Below, piece after piece: positions 2 to 40,066 of a DNA stretch of 64,000 nucleotides. The stretch spans positions 4,425-68,424 of the forward strand of contig CAYMIL010000003.1 in NCBI GenBank assembly GCA_964390845.1, written 5' to 3'. Below the pieces are notes generated by a model. That model made no database searches and had not been told where the DNA came from. It saw only the letters and a program-made list of their open reading frames with translations. The translations under genes were made by a program, and so were the position numbers. The number at the start of each line of letters is the position of its first letter. Within the stretch, counting starts at the first letter, position 1. Source of the DNA: an uncultured Candidatus Saccharibacteria bacterium. Lineage in GTDB: Bacteria > Patescibacteriota > Minisyncoccia > Phycocordibacterales > CALRHW01.

Positions 2-1363
2 GTGTATCAGGAGGTTATCCGCAAAGAGCGCAATCTTGAATATAAAGGAAAGACAGTAGAGGTTGTGCCAGATGTTCCACTCGAAGCTATTCGTCGCATC
101 GAGCAGGCTGCAAAAAATGCCGACGCTGATGTTACGGTCATCGAAATTGGTGGCACAATTGGTGAGTATCAAAACGTGCTCTTTGTCGAAGCGGCTCGTA
201 TGATGAAGGCGCGAAACCCTCGCAGTGTTGCTGTCGTGATGGTGTCGTATCTGCCGATGCCGTCGATGATCGGCGAGATGAAGACAAAGCCCACGCAACA
301 CGCGGCACGCTCACTCAACAGTGTTGGTGTGCAGGCGGATATTATTATCGCCCGCAGTCATGTGCACCTCGACCAAAAACGAAAAGAAAAAATCGCAATT
401 TTCTGCAACATTCCCGCACAGCAGGTTATTTCAGCTCCCGATGTTGAAAGTATTTACGATGTGCCTATCAATTTTGAAAAAGACAAGCTCAGCTCGCGCC
501 TCTGCGACATCCTCGACCTCAAGCCGAAAAAACGCGTTGCCGATCTCGCGCCATGGAAACAATTGCTCAAGCGCGTGCGCAACGGTTCGACAGATGTTCG
601 CATCGCAATCGTTGGAAAATATTTTGATTCTGGCAATTTCTCTCTTTCCGACGCATATATTTCTGTTATTCATGCAATAAAATTTTCCGCATACAAACTC
701 GGCGTGAAGCCGGTGATTGAATACTTAAGTGCCCGCGATTTTGAAACAGGGAAGCGTGCACTTTCAGACCTCGATGCATATGATGGTATTTTGGTGCCCG
801 GTGGTTTTGGCTCCACAGGCATAGAGGGGAAGCTGAAGGTGATTGAATACGCGCGCACAAAGGGCATTCCATACTTCGGTATTTGCTACGGCATGCAACT
901 TGCTGTCATAGAGTACGCGCGCAATGTTGCAAAACTTTCTGGTGCACACACGACCGAAGTTAACCCAAAAACTCCTTATCCAGTGATATACATCATGCCT
1001 GAGCAGAAAGAGAACCTTGCTGAAAACCGCTATGGTGGCACAATGCGCCTCGGTGCATACCCTGCGGTTCTCAAGAAAGACACCATCGCGCGTGCGGCGT
1101 ATGGCAGTGAAAAAATCTCAGAGCGTCATCGACATCGCTATGAAGTAAATCCGGCATATGTTGAAAAACTAGAAAAAGCCGGCCTTGTCTTTTCAGGTGT
1201 ATCGCCGAGTCGTACGCTTATGGAAATTGCAGAGCTTCCACGCGAAGTGCATCCATTTTTTGTCGGCGCGCAGTTTCACCCAGAATTTCAGGCGCGACCA
1301 CTTGCTCCACACCCGCTTTTTACCGCGTTTGTAGAGGCTTCACTTAAGAGGAAGAGAAAATAA
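2..1363 (+). CDS. pyrG: CTP synthase, 5'-truncated at window edge (C-terminal synthetase part plus glutamine amidotransferase domain)
   Basis: GATase motifs GICYGMQ and HRHRYEVN; continuous frame from the window edge; stop at 1361-1363. Confidence 0.9.
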   Translation: MYQEVIRKERNLEYKGKTVEVVPDVPLEAIRRIEQAAKNADADVTVIEIGGTIGEYQNVLFVEAARMMKARNPRSVAVVMVSYLPMPSMIGEMKTKPTQHAARSLNSVGVQADIIIARSHVHLDQKRKEKIAIFCNIPAQQVISAPDVESIYDVPINFEKDKLSSRLCDILDLKPKKRVADLAPWKQLLKRVRNGSTDVRIAIVGKYFDSGNFSLSDAYISVIHAIKFSAYKLGVKPVIEYLSARDFETGKRALSDLDAYDGILVPGGFGSTGIEGKLKVIEYARTKGIPYFGICYGMQLAVIEYARNVAKLSGAHTTEVNPKTPYPVIYIMPEQKENLAENRYGGTMRLGAYPAVLKKDTIARAAYGSEKISERHRHRYEVNPAYVEKLEKAGLVFSGVSPSRTLMEIAELPREVHPFFVGAQFHPEFQARPLAPHPLFTAFVEASLKRKRK

Positions 1364-3589: not shown

Positions 3590-3715
3590 GACGCGCCTCC
3601 TTTCTCTATGGGTAATGGGCGTCTTGGAGGATAAAATATCTAAAAAAAGATTGGTTGTCAAGGAGGTATTGAATAATTGGACTTTTTGAAGTATCGTAAA
3701 GAACGTTTGAAGTAT

Positions 3716-3789
3716 TGCCGATTCGTCTAATGGTAGGACGACCGCCTCTGGAGCGGTTAATTGGGGTTCGAGTCCCTGATCGGCAGCCA
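3716..3789 (+). tRNA. tRNA-Gln (anticodon CTG), CCA encoded
   Basis: Cloverleaf built by hand: acceptor TGCCGAT/ATCGGCA, D stem GTCT/GGAC, anticodon stem ACCGC/GCGGT with loop CUCUGGA, T stem plus TTCGAGT loop, discriminator G followed by CCA. Confidence 0.8.
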
Positions 3790-3840
3790 AGTCATGCGGG
3801 GTCATCGCGCTCGAGGTGCGTGAGAATGTATAATTGTTAT

Positions 3841-4152
3841 ATGGAACTACTCTGGGATATTTATGAAATACAAAGTGATGCCGACAAATTGCACGGAGTA
3901 ATGCTTCGCGGACGTATCCGTAAATTCACTATCGAGAATGACATTGTCTGTCTTGCAGAAAATGCTTCTGATAAAGAGAATGCGGTTCGCTTTGCTTTGT
4001 TGGCAAACACGGATCCAGCCAAGGTTGCGGGCATCATCCAGCAACTTATTCCTGGCTCGTCTGTATCGAAAGTGTTGGAGTCAGTAAAGAATCCGGTACT
4101 CTCAAAATTGAAAGTAAACGACCTTTCTCGCTACCCTCTTGAGAATTCTTAG
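3841..4152 (+). CDS. hypothetical protein (about 100 aa, possible small alpha/beta domain)
   Basis: The track ORF 3715..4152 overlaps the tRNA at its 5' end; an internal ATG at 3841 is preceded by a TATAAT-like box at 3827-3832; no recognisable motif. Confidence 0.35.
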   Translation: MELLWDIYEIQSDADKLHGVMLRGRIRKFTIENDIVCLAENASDKENAVRFALLANTDPAKVAGIIQQLIPGSSVSKVLESVKNPVLSKLKVNDLSRYPLENS

Positions 4153-4390
4153 GTGCACGAGACGCGTTGTTTCGAACTAGGTCAAACACACCAAATGGAC
4201 TAAGCGGGGCTTGGTCGACCACGGTTCTAACACGAGACGGCCAGCTAATTTGAGATAGGCTATCGCACTCGAGATATGTCGACAGTCTTTCAGAAATCTA
4301 TAAGGTTAAGTTTCTAAAAATAGTGGAATTAGTTACATCAATCACTGTTTAGACTTAGTGGGGTCGCTGAAAGGGGTATATAATGACTGT

Positions 4391-4780
4391 ATGAAAGAGC
4401 AGGAAGATGCAATTAGAGAATATCTGACTGAGCGGGGGTGGGACCAGCTTCGTCCAGGTGATTTAGCAAAATCAATTTCAATAGAAGCAGCAGAACTTCT
4501 CGAACTTTTCCAATGGAATAATCAGAGTCTGGCTGAAGTAAAATCTGATAAAGAGAAAGTGGAGGCGATAAAGAAAGAGCTTGCAGATGTTCTAATCTAT
4601 TGCCTAGATTTGAGTGTTTTGCTTGAGCTAGACACCGCTGATATTGTTAGACAGAAACTAGAGAAAGTTAAATTGAAATATCCAGCACATCTTTTTAAGG
4701 ACAAAAACAAAGCGAAAGATGCAGAAAACGAGGGTATTTATTGGAAAATCAAAAAAGAGCATCGGATGAAGGGCGAATAA
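4391..4780 (+). CDS. MazG-like nucleotide pyrophosphohydrolase (all-alpha NTP-PPase)
   Basis: EAAELLE...W...KEELADVLIYCLDL signature of the MazG/dCTPase family; TATAAT at 4375-4380 immediately upstream of the ATG at 4391 (a GTG at 4358 is an alternative start); AT-rich gene. Confidence 0.7.
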   Translation: MKEQEDAIREYLTERGWDQLRPGDLAKSISIEAAELLELFQWNNQSLAEVKSDKEKVEAIKKELADVLIYCLDLSVLLELDTADIVRQKLEKVKLKYPAHLFKDKNKAKDAENEGIYWKIKKEHRMKGE

Positions 4781-4869: not shown

Positions 4870-5352
4870 TTACCACATCTTCGAAGAGCTGTGCGGACGA
4901 AGCAGGGCATTGAGCATCTTCACTGGCTCGATCCGCAGGTCCGCCCAATGAGCTTCCTTCCAGGAGATTCCGACCTTCACGAACTTCATTCGGGTGAGCC
5001 AAAGCCACCAGATGCGCGGGGTGTGGTACCACGTGGAAACTGCAATCGCCCGAGGGGTCTTGTAGTTGTTGTGGTACCGTGCCAGTGTGAGAAATGCATC
5101 CGTCTCACCGGCAGTGTTTCGTCCGATTGGCTCGAAAACGATGTCCACCTCCGGAACCTTCTGGTCGAGGAAGAATTGCTTCATTCCTTGACCCATGTAG
5201 ATCCCGCGCTTTTTGGCTGAAACCGTGATGAAGATCTTCTGAATCTTGCCCTTTCGGTAGAGCTCCAGAGCTTTTTCGCACCGTCCAGTCGTCTGACCAT
5301 CAATGCGTCCGTTGCACAGCTGTCCGTATCCGTAGACAAGGCCAAAGACCAT
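4870..5352 (-). CDS. YdcF/DUF218 (SanA/ElyC-like) family protein
   Basis: G..DG..T.RC..A..LY..G....I..SG pattern typical of DUF218; preceded by a TTGACA-17-ATAATA promoter and an AAGGAGG SD. Confidence 0.7.
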   Translation of the reverse strand: MVFGLVYGYGQLCNGRIDGQTTGRCEKALELYRKGKIQKIFITVSAKKRGIYMGQGMKQFFLDQKVPEVDIVFEPIGRNTAGETDAFLTLARYHNNYKTPRAIAVSTWYHTPRIWWLWLTRMKFVKVGISWKEAHWADLRIEPVKMLNALLRPHSSSKMW

Positions 5353-5371
5353 GAGTCCTCCTTCTGACGGC

Positions 5372-5400
5372 TATTATGCTATATTTTGGTGATATGTCAA
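5372..5400 (-). promoter_or_regulatory. sigma70-type promoter for the YdcF-like gene
   Basis: Minus-strand TTGACA, 17-nt spacer, ATAATA, then AAGGAGG-actc-ATG. Confidence 0.6.
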
Positions 5401-5408
5401 GGTATCTC

Positions 5409-5436
5409 TTGAATTAGTTTGTGGGACGGGTAGTAT
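5409..5436 (+). promoter_or_regulatory. sigma70-type promoter for the HTH-Nudix gene
   Basis: TTGAAT-16 nt-TAGTAT followed by an AGGAAGGA SD and the ATG at 5461. Confidence 0.5.
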
Positions 5437-5460
5437 GGGTAGGAAGGATATATTGCAGAC

Positions 5461-6177
5461 ATGCTTCACAACTTTTCACCAATTCAAAACCACATTCTCT
5501 CCAAACTTAAGAACGCACACGTTCTTCGGTATAGCGAACTGCATCCAGACAAGGTGCCCAATGATTTGTTCAACTACCATTTGCAGTATTTGGTGAAAAA
5601 AGATTTTGTGTTGAAGTCCGACGATGGCTATTCTTTGTCTGAAACAGGTATCAAACATGTTGCTGACCCGTATCCTACCAACGATGCTATTACGAGCTTG
5701 TTTAAGATAAATGTCATTACGATTGTATCGAGGGTTGTCGACGGGCGCATCGAGATTTTGAATCAGGTGAGAAAATCCAACCCATCGTATGGAAAGGTGG
5801 GTGTGATGGGTGGTGTGGTGCTCAAGGGTGAGCTCATTGAGCCCGCGGCGACACGAAAACTAAAACAAGAAACAGGTCTTGATGCGCAGTTTAGACTACT
5901 GGGTGCGGAGCGAAGAATTATGTATAAAGGTGGCGAGTTGTTTTCTGATGTGTTGTTTCCAATCGCATATGCAGATTCGTATAGCGGAGAGCTTATTGAA
6001 GACTCGGATTTTGGTCACAATATGTGGGTATCTATCGATGAGGCGCTTCGCAATGAATCATCCGAGTTTGATTCTATACACAGTATTACTACTGTGCTGA
6101 CAGCTATTAAAAACAAGGCGGTGGCAACACTCCCTGTGTTTTTCAAAGAAGAAATACAGAGCGATATAATTGAGTAA
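5461..6177 (+). CDS. winged-helix DNA-binding domain fused to a Nudix-fold domain with a degenerate Nudix box (putative regulator)
   Basis: N-terminal wHTH-like sequence ILSKLKNAHVLRYSEL...NYHLQYLVKKDFV; C-terminal GGVVLKGELIEPAATRKLKQETGL matches Gx5Ex7REUxEExGU with K/Q substitutions at the catalytic Glu positions. Confidence 0.6.
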   Translation: MLHNFSPIQNHILSKLKNAHVLRYSELHPDKVPNDLFNYHLQYLVKKDFVLKSDDGYSLSETGIKHVADPYPTNDAITSLFKINVITIVSRVVDGRIEILNQVRKSNPSYGKVGVMGGVVLKGELIEPAATRKLKQETGLDAQFRLLGAERRIMYKGGELFSDVLFPIAYADSYSGELIEDSDFGHNMWVSIDEALRNESSEFDSIHSITTVLTAIKNKAVATLPVFFKEEIQSDIIE

Positions 6178-6291
6178 TATCACCACGTAGTGGGATATGT
6201 ATCTACCGAGGACCTCCTCGCTTTTTTTGTATATACAGATGCGTAGACTAATGGATGGGATTATCAACGTAACCCTTACAAAGGAAAAGCA

Positions 6292-7122
6292 ATGAACACA
6301 CACATAAGCGAGCTTAAGACCACAGGATTCGTCATGCTGGATTATCCATCTGACCTCAGGTCTGCGGTGGAGAAGACCGTGGAGTTGTGGAAGCGTTTTT
6401 GTGCTTTGCCTGTTGAGGTGAAGAAGGGGCTTCCGTACAGCAACGGTGGCGATGGTGTCGGGTACGAACTCAAAGAAGGCATTGGCAACAAGGCCGATCG
6501 AAAGGAGAATTTCGACATCACGACGGAAGGCGAAGCGTGGTTTCTCAAGAACATCGACACAATCGAAAATCCAGTTGCGATTGAGTTTGTGAAGAGTGCC
6601 ACAGCTCTTGTTGCGGTGATGAAGCCAACAATTCTCGAGTTTGCGTCGCAGGCCGAAGCCGAGTTTGGACTCGAAGGTTTCGCGAAGGAGGTCGAGGAAA
6701 GTGAGGCTGGGTTCTTTACGAGATTTATCCACTACTTCGGTGACAGGGATGTTGGCGAAGAGACTGCGACGGCACACACGGATCAGAGCGGATTCACTCT
6801 GCATTTGTTTGAGAACGCAGAGGGTCTGCAGTGTCTGACGTATGACATGAAGTGGATAGATATGCCGGTGTCGAGCGGTAGGACGGTGATTATTCCGTCT
6901 ATGCAGATGCAACTGCGCTCACGTGGTGAGCTCACTGCGCTGTGCCACAGGGTCATCGCGACCGAACGCACTGCGCACGAGGGACGGTATTCCGCTGTCT
7001 GCTTTGTGCAGTTGAAGCGCACACCACGATACGACAAGGAAAAGGGGGGTCGACTTCAGGAAAAGGAGCCGGGCTTCAACTACGGCATGACACATGAGGA
7101 GTTCGCGACGTTGTTTAAGTAG
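6292..7122 (+). CDS. 2-oxoglutarate/Fe(II)-dependent oxygenase family protein
   Basis: HTD (HxD)...H(RV)...RYS facial-triad/2OG-binding pattern; AAGGAAA SD. Confidence 0.7.
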   Translation: MNTHISELKTTGFVMLDYPSDLRSAVEKTVELWKRFCALPVEVKKGLPYSNGGDGVGYELKEGIGNKADRKENFDITTEGEAWFLKNIDTIENPVAIEFVKSATALVAVMKPTILEFASQAEAEFGLEGFAKEVEESEAGFFTRFIHYFGDRDVGEETATAHTDQSGFTLHLFENAEGLQCLTYDMKWIDMPVSSGRTVIIPSMQMQLRSRGELTALCHRVIATERTAHEGRYSAVCFVQLKRTPRYDKEKGGRLQEKEPGFNYGMTHEEFATLFK

Positions 7123-7142: not shown

Positions 7143-7172
7143 AAGGGCGGCCGATTACTCGGCCGCCCTTTC
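7143..7172 (+). terminator. rho-independent terminator
   Basis: GGGCGGCCGA-ttact-CGGCCGCCC followed by TTTCTG. Confidence 0.6.
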
Positions 7173-39628: not shown

Positions 39629-40066
39629 ATGGAGAGTATGCTTATGACTACGGCAGTACTCGTGGAGGAAGCAGAGATCGAGCGGTCGCGGTGCGCGATT
39701 CGTGAGAAGCTCTGCAAGCACGGTCTCGGCCCTGCGGAGGCTGAGGAGGTCATGTCCGAGGCGACCCCGCGTCTTGCGGAGGAGGTCTTCGCCTGGACGG
39801 AGCGTGCCACCAAGCTGATGAAGCGGAGTGTGCGCGACAAGTTCAAGCGGGTTCGGCCTGCACGCATCATGCGCATCACGTTGCGCTGGCTGCGTCTGCT
39901 CAGCACGTCCATCGCCAACGTGGACGCGCTCTACTCCAAGTGCTTGCGGCGTCTCAACCAGCTCAAGCTGGACATCAGCGCTCGCAACGTGACCGAGATG
40001 AGGCGCTTCGCGCGTGGCATCATCGTGGCGCTCAAGATCAAGGAGCGCAAGATGGTTCCCGCGTAG
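39629..40066 (+). CDS. hypothetical basic alpha-helical protein (GC-rich island); start uncertain (39629 or 39647)
   Basis: GC-rich ORF; GGAGAG SD-like sequence 7 nt before the third ATG; R/K-rich; followed by a strong hairpin terminator. Confidence 0.4.
   Translation: MESMLMTTAVLVEEAEIERSRCAIREKLCKHGLGPAEAEEVMSEATPRLAEEVFAWTERATKLMKRSVRDKFKRVRPARIMRITLRWLRLLSTSIANVDALYSKCLRRLNQLKLDISARNVTEMRRFARGIIVALKIKERKMVPA

Follow-up and report, generated by a model that had tools for sequence, protein, structure and literature searches.

A predicted winged-helix-Nudix regulator of Patescibacteria with a candidate operator in the promoter of an adjacent oxygenase gene

NrtR and AraR, the closest described counterparts of the protein considered here, are repressors, as are most proteins of the ArsR, PadR and MarR types. 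The Patescibacteria (candidate phyla radiation) have tiny genomes and, to our knowledge, only a few of their transcription factors have an assigned binding site; a literature search returned no report on such a factor, and no paper on the Pfam family DUF7347, on regulators in which a winged helix is followed by a Nudix domain, or on Patescibacteria regulons of such kind. The crystal structure of AraR was determined with a 27-bp operator duplex, 25 bp of which are covered by the dimer (PMC4666351). We analyzed a 64,000-nucleotide (nt) stretch of contig CAYMIL010000003.1 from an uncultured Candidatus Saccharibacteria bacterium (hereafter, the window), in which a gene encoding a winged-helix-Nudix protein (positions 5461-6177) precedes a gene for an Fe(II)/2-oxoglutarate (2OG) oxygenase. 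This protein is probably an NrtR-like, effector-sensing local regulator that was built by an independent fusion of the two domains in the reverse order, binds a palindrome located just past its own gene and controls the gene downstream. Binding of the palindrome by the regulator is suggested by the conservation of this element, its co-localization with the regulator gene and its placement within a promoter.

The regulator and its family

The features of the regulator gene are the following:

5461-6177, plus strand: regulator gene, 238 aa, ATG start, winged helix plus Nudix fold
5479-5664, plus strand: winged helix-turn-helix, residues 7-68 (Pfam DUF7347, secondary structure of the AlphaFold2 (AF2) model, PDB profile matches)
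5560-5598, plus strand: predicted recognition helix, residues 34-46, NDLFNYHLQYLVK (AF2 model)
5701-6060, plus strand: Nudix-fold domain, residues ~81-200 (Pfam NUDIX, Foldseek, PDB profile search)

Both halves of the protein match Pfam models above the respective cutoffs, DUF7347 (a winged helix) on residues 11-65 (E 3.4e-7, 30.9 bits, cutoff 27.6) and NUDIX on residues 94-198 (E 3.2e-8, 34.1 bits, cutoff 21.1). With E-values up to 1 admitted, the N-terminal domain matches only DUF7347 and, weakly, HTH_45 in Pfam, and NCBIfam is without a model for the regulator, yielding marginal NadM-Nudix matches only. In the AF2 model, which was built with 57 family sequences (predicted local distance difference test score, pLDDT, 94; predicted template modeling score, pTM, 0.86), residues 7-59 form an H-H-H-beta-beta winged helix-turn-helix (helices 7-17, 24-27 and 34-46, strands 50-53 and 56-59) that is followed by an alpha/beta/alpha Nudix fold. 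A Foldseek search of the PDB matched only the C-terminal half, to MTH1/MutT, the Nudix domain of NrtR and AraR (E about 1e-8 to 1e-9, with 3gz8 and 5dd4 among the matches), and gave a probability of 1.00 for the Nudix fold with MTH1 and MutT; the complete architecture was found there in no solved structure. A profile of the N-terminal 72 residues retrieved from the PDB, in the first place, AspA (E 0.004, a weak match), then hsRosR, Sso10a and ArsR, down to E 0.1, and the matches also include ribosomal RNA-binding winged helices (eS19 and the S10/plectin domain). The invariant residues of the winged helix are H40, L44, K52, Y57 and G63.

The Nudix box, GGVVLKGELIEPAATRKLKQETGL (residues 117-140, nt 5809-5880), contains the sequence RKLKQE. 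When it is aligned to the signature GX5EX7REUXEEXGU (MutT numbering), E53 is seen to be replaced by K133 and E56 by Q136, and E44 (E124), R52 (R132) and E57 (E137) are kept, that is, one of the three Glu of REUXEE is left. The regulator thus lacks the intact box, with all three Glu of REUXEE, by which active hydrolases are recognized. Among the full-length representatives of the 50%-identity clusters of the family (n=122), RE..EE is present in 21 and RK..EE in 37, and the clade of the window protein has RK..QE throughout. This distribution looks like a graded decay within the family, from a probable enzyme to a non-enzyme, and would parallel the comparable loss of catalytic Glu from the Nudix box of the NrtR and AraR regulators (PMC4666351). 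Compared with the PDB, the profile of the Nudix half of the family matches best AraR (5bs6; E 1.1e-12, 51 bits) and second MTH1 (E 3.9e-9, 39.5 bits), and the Shewanella NrtR is absent from the top sequence matches. We take the Nudix domain to be homologous to the Nudix domain of NrtR and AraR, with AraR as its nearest solved relative.

An earlier note on this stretch, made from the sequence alone, had described a region like a winged helix-turn-helix at the N-terminus and a Nudix fold at the C-terminus, that is, the opposite of the NrtR order, with two catalytic Glu of the Nudix box replaced (RKLKQE). The Pfam coordinates and the AF2 model bear out both the domains and their order, so that a DNA-binding type of fold is found at the N-terminus and a Nudix-like fold at the C-terminus, and the two replacements are those at K133 and Q136. 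The further claim of the note that such a degenerate box resembles those of NrtR-type sensors gains support from the impaired signature, together with the rank of AraR as the closest profile match.

Hundreds of relatives of the regulator, at 54-82% identity, were detected in addition to an exact copy. Those with annotation are proteins from metagenome-assembled genomes of Patescibacteria, Paceibacterota, Taylorbacteria and Saccharibacteria that are labeled 'NUDIX hydrolase' or 'MutT'. The family comprises more than 1500 sequences at 90% clustering, almost all of them from Patescibacteria (Paceibacteria/Taylorbacteria and Saccharimonadia), and when representatives of 50%-identity clusters were searched exhaustively, 298 clusters were obtained at E<1e-10. 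Nearly all of these representatives are 230-245 aa long and match end to end, so that the two-domain architecture defines the family. At locus L046 (5069-7749), the gene of a relative with 44% identity (P0145) overlaps the end of an APH-like kinase gene by 16 nt and is followed by convergent cupin and CYTH genes, and the locus has no oxygenase gene; other gene contexts are therefore encountered in the deeper branches of the family. At locus L007 (6456-7694; P0012 and P0040), a PemK/MazF-like open reading frame (ORF) runs in frame into the regulator gene, giving a 412-aa product that is annotated as a toxin. We do not adopt this as a genuine fusion because it is probably a run-through in ORF calling, with the regulator's own TTGTCA-17-TAATAT promoter still inside.

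Palindrome, promoter and downstream genes

The elements between the regulator and oxygenase genes, and the promoter of the regulator itself, are the following:

6206-6221, plus strand: predicted operator, 16-bp imperfect palindrome CCGAGGACCTCCTCGC (Gibbs motif; family consensus TTA-CCGAGG-N4-CCTCGC)
6222-6228, plus strand: T7 run directly after the palindrome, at the -35 position of the oxygenase promoter (read from the sequence)
6244-6249, plus strand: predicted -10 box TAGACT of the oxygenase promoter (TANNNT phased to the palindrome)
5409-5436, plus strand: regulator promoter, TTGAAT (5409-5414), 16-nt spacer, TAGTAT (5431-5436) (read from the sequence)

Gibbs sampling over the spacers between regulator and oxygenase genes reveals one strong motif, CCGAGG-N4-CCTCGC (21 bits over 16 nt), typically with TTA in front and a T-run behind. 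We surveyed its sites at loci of the less distant family members, with flanking DNA of up to 10 kb on each side. A site of at least 20 bits, no more than 320 nt past the stop codon of the regulator, is present in 85 of 105 loci, and most of the remaining loci contain the variant GTGAG...CTCAC that is under-weighted by the matrix; overall, some 85-95% of the loci have the palindrome after the regulator gene. None of up to 3000 random stretches drawn as a control (skipping draws within 3.5 kb of a regulator) reaches 14 bits. In flanks of about 1 Mb, 105 sites were detected. All but one are downstream of the regulator, 88 at a distance of 0-200 nt and 16 at 200-3000 nt; the remaining site is upstream, and there is none elsewhere. 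The orientation is the same as that of the regulator in 101 of the 105. In the window, the palindrome at 6206-6221 is the single copy within 64 kb; the weaker matches of the position weight matrix at 39777 and 54529 are intragenic, have no -10 box at +39 and were set aside as chance. With the adjoining TA and T-run included, the core (TACCGAGG-N4-CCTCGCTTTTT) has zero exact matches in 2.9 million viral contigs, and libraries of defense systems and phages yielded nothing relevant.

The palindrome is kept where the next gene is not the oxygenase, and also with regulators that are only 37-39% identical to the window protein (L113 and L091), and hence is tied to the regulator rather than to the oxygenase. 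It is far better conserved than the regulator protein. The stem positions GAGG/CCTC form Watson-Crick pairs in 95, 95, 86 and 86 of 95 loci, almost always the identical pair, and the central four bases vary freely; this near-invariance indicates a constraint on the sequence, not on pairing. The 6-4-6 arrangement, with half-site centers 10 bp apart, has the geometry that would suit a dimeric helix-turn-helix (HTH) protein on B-DNA. Across genomes, the palindrome is co-localized with the regulator gene and lies inside a promoter, which is the pattern sought in comparative genomics.

The identity of one residue of the predicted recognition helix follows the beginning of the site. All 75 proteins with a site that starts with CC have Q as residue 42, and K or R is found in this position only with sites beginning with GT or GA (10/10). 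One of the K/R cases, at L058, falls inside the 75%-identity group, outside the divergent Saccharimonadia-like clade. Such covariation between residue 42 and the core is the pattern that would be expected for direct read-out of the site.

With the sites aligned on the palindrome, TANNNT starts at +39/+40 from its first base in 84 of the 95 primary sites, where the background per position is about 1-7 loci, and in 14 of the 16 secondary sites. The share of purines at +52/+53 is 74-83%, an enrichment that would fit a start site 7 nt past the -10 box. In the window, the predicted transcription start of the oxygenase gene is near 6257, giving a 35-nt leader with AAGGA ahead of the ATG at 6292. The fixed spacing to the -10 box makes the palindrome an integral, phased part of the promoter of the downstream gene. 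Relative to the predicted start, it spans about -51 to -36, with the center at about -43.5, and the -35 position of the promoter is taken by a T-run or by TAGAAG, with no TTG, in contrast to the regulator's own promoters that carry TTGNNN -35 boxes.

The promoter of the regulator in the window scores 8/12, under the threshold of the promoter scan, and the predicted leader of the mRNA is ~17 nt long, with GGAAGGA. The same arrangement, TTGNNN-16..18-TANNNT, is present 5' of the regulator in 28 of 41 related loci, compared to 4.9 expected from shuffles. In most relatives (L005-L040), the distance from the first base of the TTGNNN -35 box to the ATG is 34-44 nt and the -10 box ends about 6 nt before the start codon, so that their regulator mRNAs should be leaderless, the window copy being the exception. 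On the minus strand, a near-consensus promoter, TTGACA-16-CATAAT (5373-5400; 11/12), is directed toward the DUF218 gene (4870-5352), which is divergent from the regulator gene; two back-to-back promoters are thus found in the 108-nt spacer at 5353-5460. Gibbs sampling over this spacer in 41 loci gave a motif of about 7 bits only and nothing beyond the sigma-70-like promoter.

The TTGAAT/TAGTAT promoter noticed earlier is, accordingly, an arrangement shared with relatives. The suggested search for palindromic operators on both sides of the regulator gene had a divided outcome: in 6178-6291, it led to the conserved palindrome that is phased with the -10 box, and in 5353-5460, to the promoter only. 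Also in the downstream spacer, immediately after the regulator stop codon, there is an inverted repeat, TATCACCAC-GTA-GTGGGATA (6178-6197), that is folded into a hairpin in the structure prediction; this repeat is present in no related locus and is probably incidental rather than a functional element. Palindromes that were picked out by eye just 5' of the oxygenase start in several loci (ATTATTAAC-like) share no common motif and were not reproduced by the motif search.

Some loci (L012, L022, L033, L050, L062, L083, L102, L117 and L124) contain two or three tandem units of palindrome plus -10 box, each before a different gene. At L033, identical copies of the palindrome (8746 and 9820) precede genes for two paralogous repeat-rich proteins. 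The tandem units suggest small local multi-gene regulons or duplicated promoter-gene cassettes.

The gene that follows the palindrome in the window has these features:

6292-7122, plus strand: Fe(II)/2OG oxygenase gene, DIOX_N/IPNS-like, 276 aa (Pfam, AF2, Foldseek)
6775-6777, 6781-6783 and 6946-6948, plus strand: codons of the metal triad H162, D164 and H219, conserved in orthologs
7143-7170, plus strand: strong intrinsic terminator closing the oxygenase gene (RNAfold -25.0 kcal/mol, 12-bp stem)

The oxygenase gene noted earlier downstream of the regulator is confirmed, on the same strand and separated from the regulator stop codon by 114 nt. Its product matches the Pfam family 2OG-FeII_Oxy (PF03171; E 1.7e-9) and, weakly, DIOX_N, and the AF2 model has a pLDDT of 90. 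H162, D164, H219 and R232 are invariant in 32 of 32 orthologs, and S234, the other defined residue of the 2OG-binding motif R232-x-S234, is Ala in four. Given that the HxD...H triad and R232 are kept in all 32 orthologs, the oxygenase should be catalytically competent, and given the Asp in the metal triad, it would be of the hydroxylase type, not a halogenase. The best Foldseek match is SO_2589 (3on7), followed by thymine-7-hydroxylase (5c3p), and further matches include AdaV-type nucleotide halogenases (7w5t and 7v54), ACC oxidase and the ethylene-forming enzyme (E 6e-14 to 1e-11; 13-23% identity to the fold neighbors). We refrained from assigning a substrate from these neighbors because the best match is uncharacterized and the characterized ones act on very different substrates. 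In the intergenic regions, Rfam matched no family; sub-threshold CsrC and L20-leader matches fall on the terminator after the oxygenase gene, and the CsrC match at 7143-7170 (24 bits vs. the 61-bit gathering score), which covers the hairpin only, was rejected as a chance resemblance.

Gene neighborhoods were compared in 43 species-representative genome loci and 80 metagenome loci, of which 101 are non-redundant with enough downstream DNA, in flanks of up to 10 kb on each side. The oxygenase is encoded directly downstream of the regulator in 72 of the 101 loci (71%), namely, in 41 of 51 loci with regulators at least 70% identical to the window protein, 16 of the 30 in the 60-70% range and 15 of the 19 in the 50-60% range. 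The regulator and the oxygenase thus form a conserved module, and the pairing that the earlier note proposed to examine for co-occurrence does involve a conserved neighbor. In the other ~29% of the loci, the next gene encodes a YfbR-like HD phosphohydrolase, a HIT, a CYTH, a methyltransferase or one of several orphan proteins. At L042 (8782-9678), where the oxygenase is seemingly absent, a 298-aa product has an oxygenase-like N-terminus (WDAYCKLPEEEK vs. WKRFCALPVEVK); this protein shows no Pfam match and no obvious HxD...H motif, and may be a degenerate relative of the oxygenase. The other neighbors in the window, DUF218, MazG-like, LssY_C, cytidylate kinase and MetRS, recur in none of the 43 genome loci. 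Farther upstream in the window, there is a tRNA-Gln(CTG) gene (3716-3789, plus strand), and the overlapping ORF 3715-4152 is probably not genuine, or at least its 5' end is not.

Proposed mechanism and its alternatives

Under the mechanism we propose, the regulator would be a small-molecule-sensing transcription factor, probably dimeric, that binds the palindrome CCGAGG-N4-CCTCGC just after its own gene through the N-terminal ArsR/PadR-like winged helix. The Nudix domain, with two of the three catalytic Glu lost, would be the effector-binding module, as in NrtR and AraR. A promoter with a good -10 box and no TTG -35 box would drive the downstream gene, the oxygenase here and an HD 5'-nucleotidase-like, HIT, CYTH or orphan gene elsewhere, and ligand binding would alter the affinity for DNA or the geometry of the complex, so that this gene is switched. 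The palindrome with its T-run would further serve as a weak terminator, or as a roadblock when occupied, shielding the target from the regulator's constitutive promoter. That the combination also acts as a weak terminator of the regulator transcript is probable because 79 of the 95 primary sites carry a T-run. There are weak indications that the ligand is nucleotide-like.

Sites of class II activators are centered near -41.5 and abut or replace a poor -35 element. Because the -35 box is missing here and the site is located at about -43.5, as with class II activators or PhoB, we slightly favor activation over repression, even though a site that abuts the -35 position could equally occlude RNA polymerase.

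Several observations weigh against the regulatory mechanism. The winged helix was assigned, tentatively, through a DUF family and weak PDB matches (E about 0.004). The palindrome is consistently asymmetric, with C, not G, in position 16, and with no site 5' of the regulator gene, there is no sign of the autoregulation that such factors typically show. The Q42/K42 correlation with the core amounts to about two independent events, and four proteins with Q have GT or CA cores. The retained E57, E44 and R52 might support residual hydrolase activity, and the T-run behind most of the primary sites gives the element the look of an intrinsic terminator, as do a few G-T wobbles and compensatory changes in the outer stem of the kind an RNA hairpin would show.

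These observations bear on three alternatives. If the palindrome and T-run were simply the intrinsic terminator of the regulator gene, the -10 box would belong to an ordinary constitutive promoter, the real operator, if any, would be elsewhere, and the oxygenase would be a functionally linked neighbor, not the target of the regulator. The terminator-like label that a scan attached to 6207-6220 with its T7 tail (minimum five pairs) fits this explanation, as do the sense orientation of all the T-runs, the compensatory and G-T changes in pairs 1-16, 2-15, 5-12 and 6-11, and the sites located right after stop codons of other genes in the multi-site loci. The stem, however, is only 4-5 bp long and has a hairpin energy of -6.8 kcal/mol in the window (mean of -6.7 over the 95 loci) compared to -20.7 and -25.0 kcal/mol for the two other terminators in the window, and the spacer between the regulator and oxygenase genes folds no better than its shuffles (z -1.0). 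Moreover, GAGG/CCTC is invariant down to 37% protein identity, beyond what pairing requires, and no other gene, be it in the window or in the flanks of about 1 Mb, makes use of this hairpin sequence. The T-run is absent from about half of the secondary sites and from L050, L091 and L113, yet the +39/+40 spacing to the -10 box is kept, and L091 has its own, separate long hairpin ahead of the palindrome. We consider a terminator without an operator role unlikely. It is very unlikely, in our estimate, that the regulator binds the nascent hairpin in a ligand-dependent manner and modulates termination or read-through, as an enzyme-derived attenuation protein similar to PyrR. A hairpin with a T-run directly between two co-directional genes would be the expected layout for attenuation, a weak hairpin could need stabilization by a protein, several G-T pairs are tolerated, and the relatives of the winged helix include the RNA-binding eS19 and S10/plectin domain; but the fixed distance from the element to the -10 box and the purine enrichment at the start site downstream speak for initiation rather than attenuation, termination is impossible at sites that lack a T-run, the best winged-helix matches (AspA, hsRosR, Sso10a and ArsR) are double-stranded (ds) DNA binders, and a palindrome of the 6-4-6 type fits a dimeric HTH protein on B-DNA.

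The protein could, instead, be a Nudix hydrolase, or a hydrolase with altered chemistry, that acts in the same pathway as the oxygenase and uses the winged helix as a nucleic-acid tether, with no regulation involved. The retention of E124, R132 and E137, the full Nudix box in 21 of the 122 distant family clusters, the public annotations and the HD, HIT and CYTH nucleotide-phosphate enzymes encoded next to the regulator in other loci are all compatible with an enzyme. Two metal-binding or catalytic Glu are replaced throughout the clade, however, a pattern shown by the inactive regulators NrtR and AraR (PMC4666351), the nearest solved Nudix relative is a regulator, and an enzyme leaves unexplained the palindrome and promoter that are tied to its gene, so that we regard a purely enzymatic function as quite improbable.

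Two of the characterized fold neighbors of the oxygenase have a nucleobase or nucleotide as substrate, and the alternative targets belong to the nucleotide-phosphate enzymes, which is only a hint at a nucleotide theme. A gene for a MazG-like nucleotide pyrophosphohydrolase (4358-4780, plus strand), two genes 5' of the regulator, fits the same theme; such a gene was found beside the regulator in no relative examined. One could imagine a Patescibacteria-specific circuit in which a sensor of a scavenged or damaged nucleotide-derived metabolite activates a silent, -35-less promoter and thereby an oxygenase that hydroxylates a nucleobase or nucleotide (elsewhere, an HD, HIT or CYTH protein), with the 16-bp element combining the roles of operator, terminator stem and roadblock. 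This is speculation, and the complete circuit is unlikely. Should it hold, it would be among the few transcription factor-operator pairs known to us in these uncultivated, host-dependent bacteria and would point to an unrecognized step of nucleotide salvage or detoxification. The oxygenase and the HD, HIT and CYTH targets give a hint of a function related to nucleotides, which would matter to organisms that depend on scavenging nucleotides from hosts. Irrespective of the ligand, this is a widespread regulator family with a precise predicted operator, promoter architecture and target gene, all of which can be tested in vitro without cultivation. A disabled Nudix enzyme would have been recruited as an effector domain on two or more occasions, each time with another winged helix, and the domain orders are opposite.

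Relation to known systems

The oxygenase shares the fold and the HxD...H and RxS motifs with the DIOX_N/2OG-FeII_Oxy (IPNS-like) oxygenases but is only 17-23% identical to them. The winged helix of the regulator has the H-H-H-wing topology of the ArsR/SmtB and PadR types (AspA, 4rs8; hsRosR, 6qfd; Sso10a, 1r7j; ArsR, 1y0u) over the N-terminal 70 residues, as well as the 'HL..L...G(L/F)V' pattern of the recognition helix. All of them are dsDNA binders that, for the most part, recognize inverted repeats as dimers. Unlike the regulator, none of them contains a Nudix or comparable C-terminal effector domain, and the PDB matches to them are weak (E 0.004 to 0.1).

With NrtR and AraR, the regulator shares the two-domain composition of a winged helix and a Nudix-like effector domain, a Nudix signature in which two or three catalytic Glu are replaced and, as predicted here, a palindromic site near the targets and local control of an adjacent metabolic gene. 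The differences are substantial. The winged helix comes first in the window protein, and it is of the DUF7347, ArsR/PadR-like kind, with no match to the NrtR-type winged helix in Pfam or the PDB profile search; because the two winged helices are unrelated, an independent fusion, not a rearranged NrtR, would account for the architecture. The predicted operator is a 16-bp palindrome as opposed to the 27-bp duplex in the AraR crystal. NrtR and AraR are repressors, whereas the site predicted here, downstream of the regulator's own gene, is centered at about -43.5 in a promoter that lacks a -35 box. Instead of NAD or arabinose genes, the sites are followed by genes for the oxygenase, HD/YfbR-like, HIT, CYTH, methyltransferase and orphan proteins, and the family is almost entirely confined to Patescibacteria. 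A recent paper describes the NrtR of Streptococcus sobrinus as having a winged helix-turn-helix at the N-terminus and a Nudix domain at the C-terminus, and that of S. suis as inverted (PMC12735969, 2025); this description conflicts with the definition of the family. Membership in the NrtR family thus fails on domain order, winged helix, operator and regulon, and the regulator is best described as an independently assembled, reverse-order analog. The principle of a Nudix-derived sensor is already known; what is of note is the reverse order, the restriction to Patescibacteria and the strongly conserved predicted operator that doubles as a terminator-like element.

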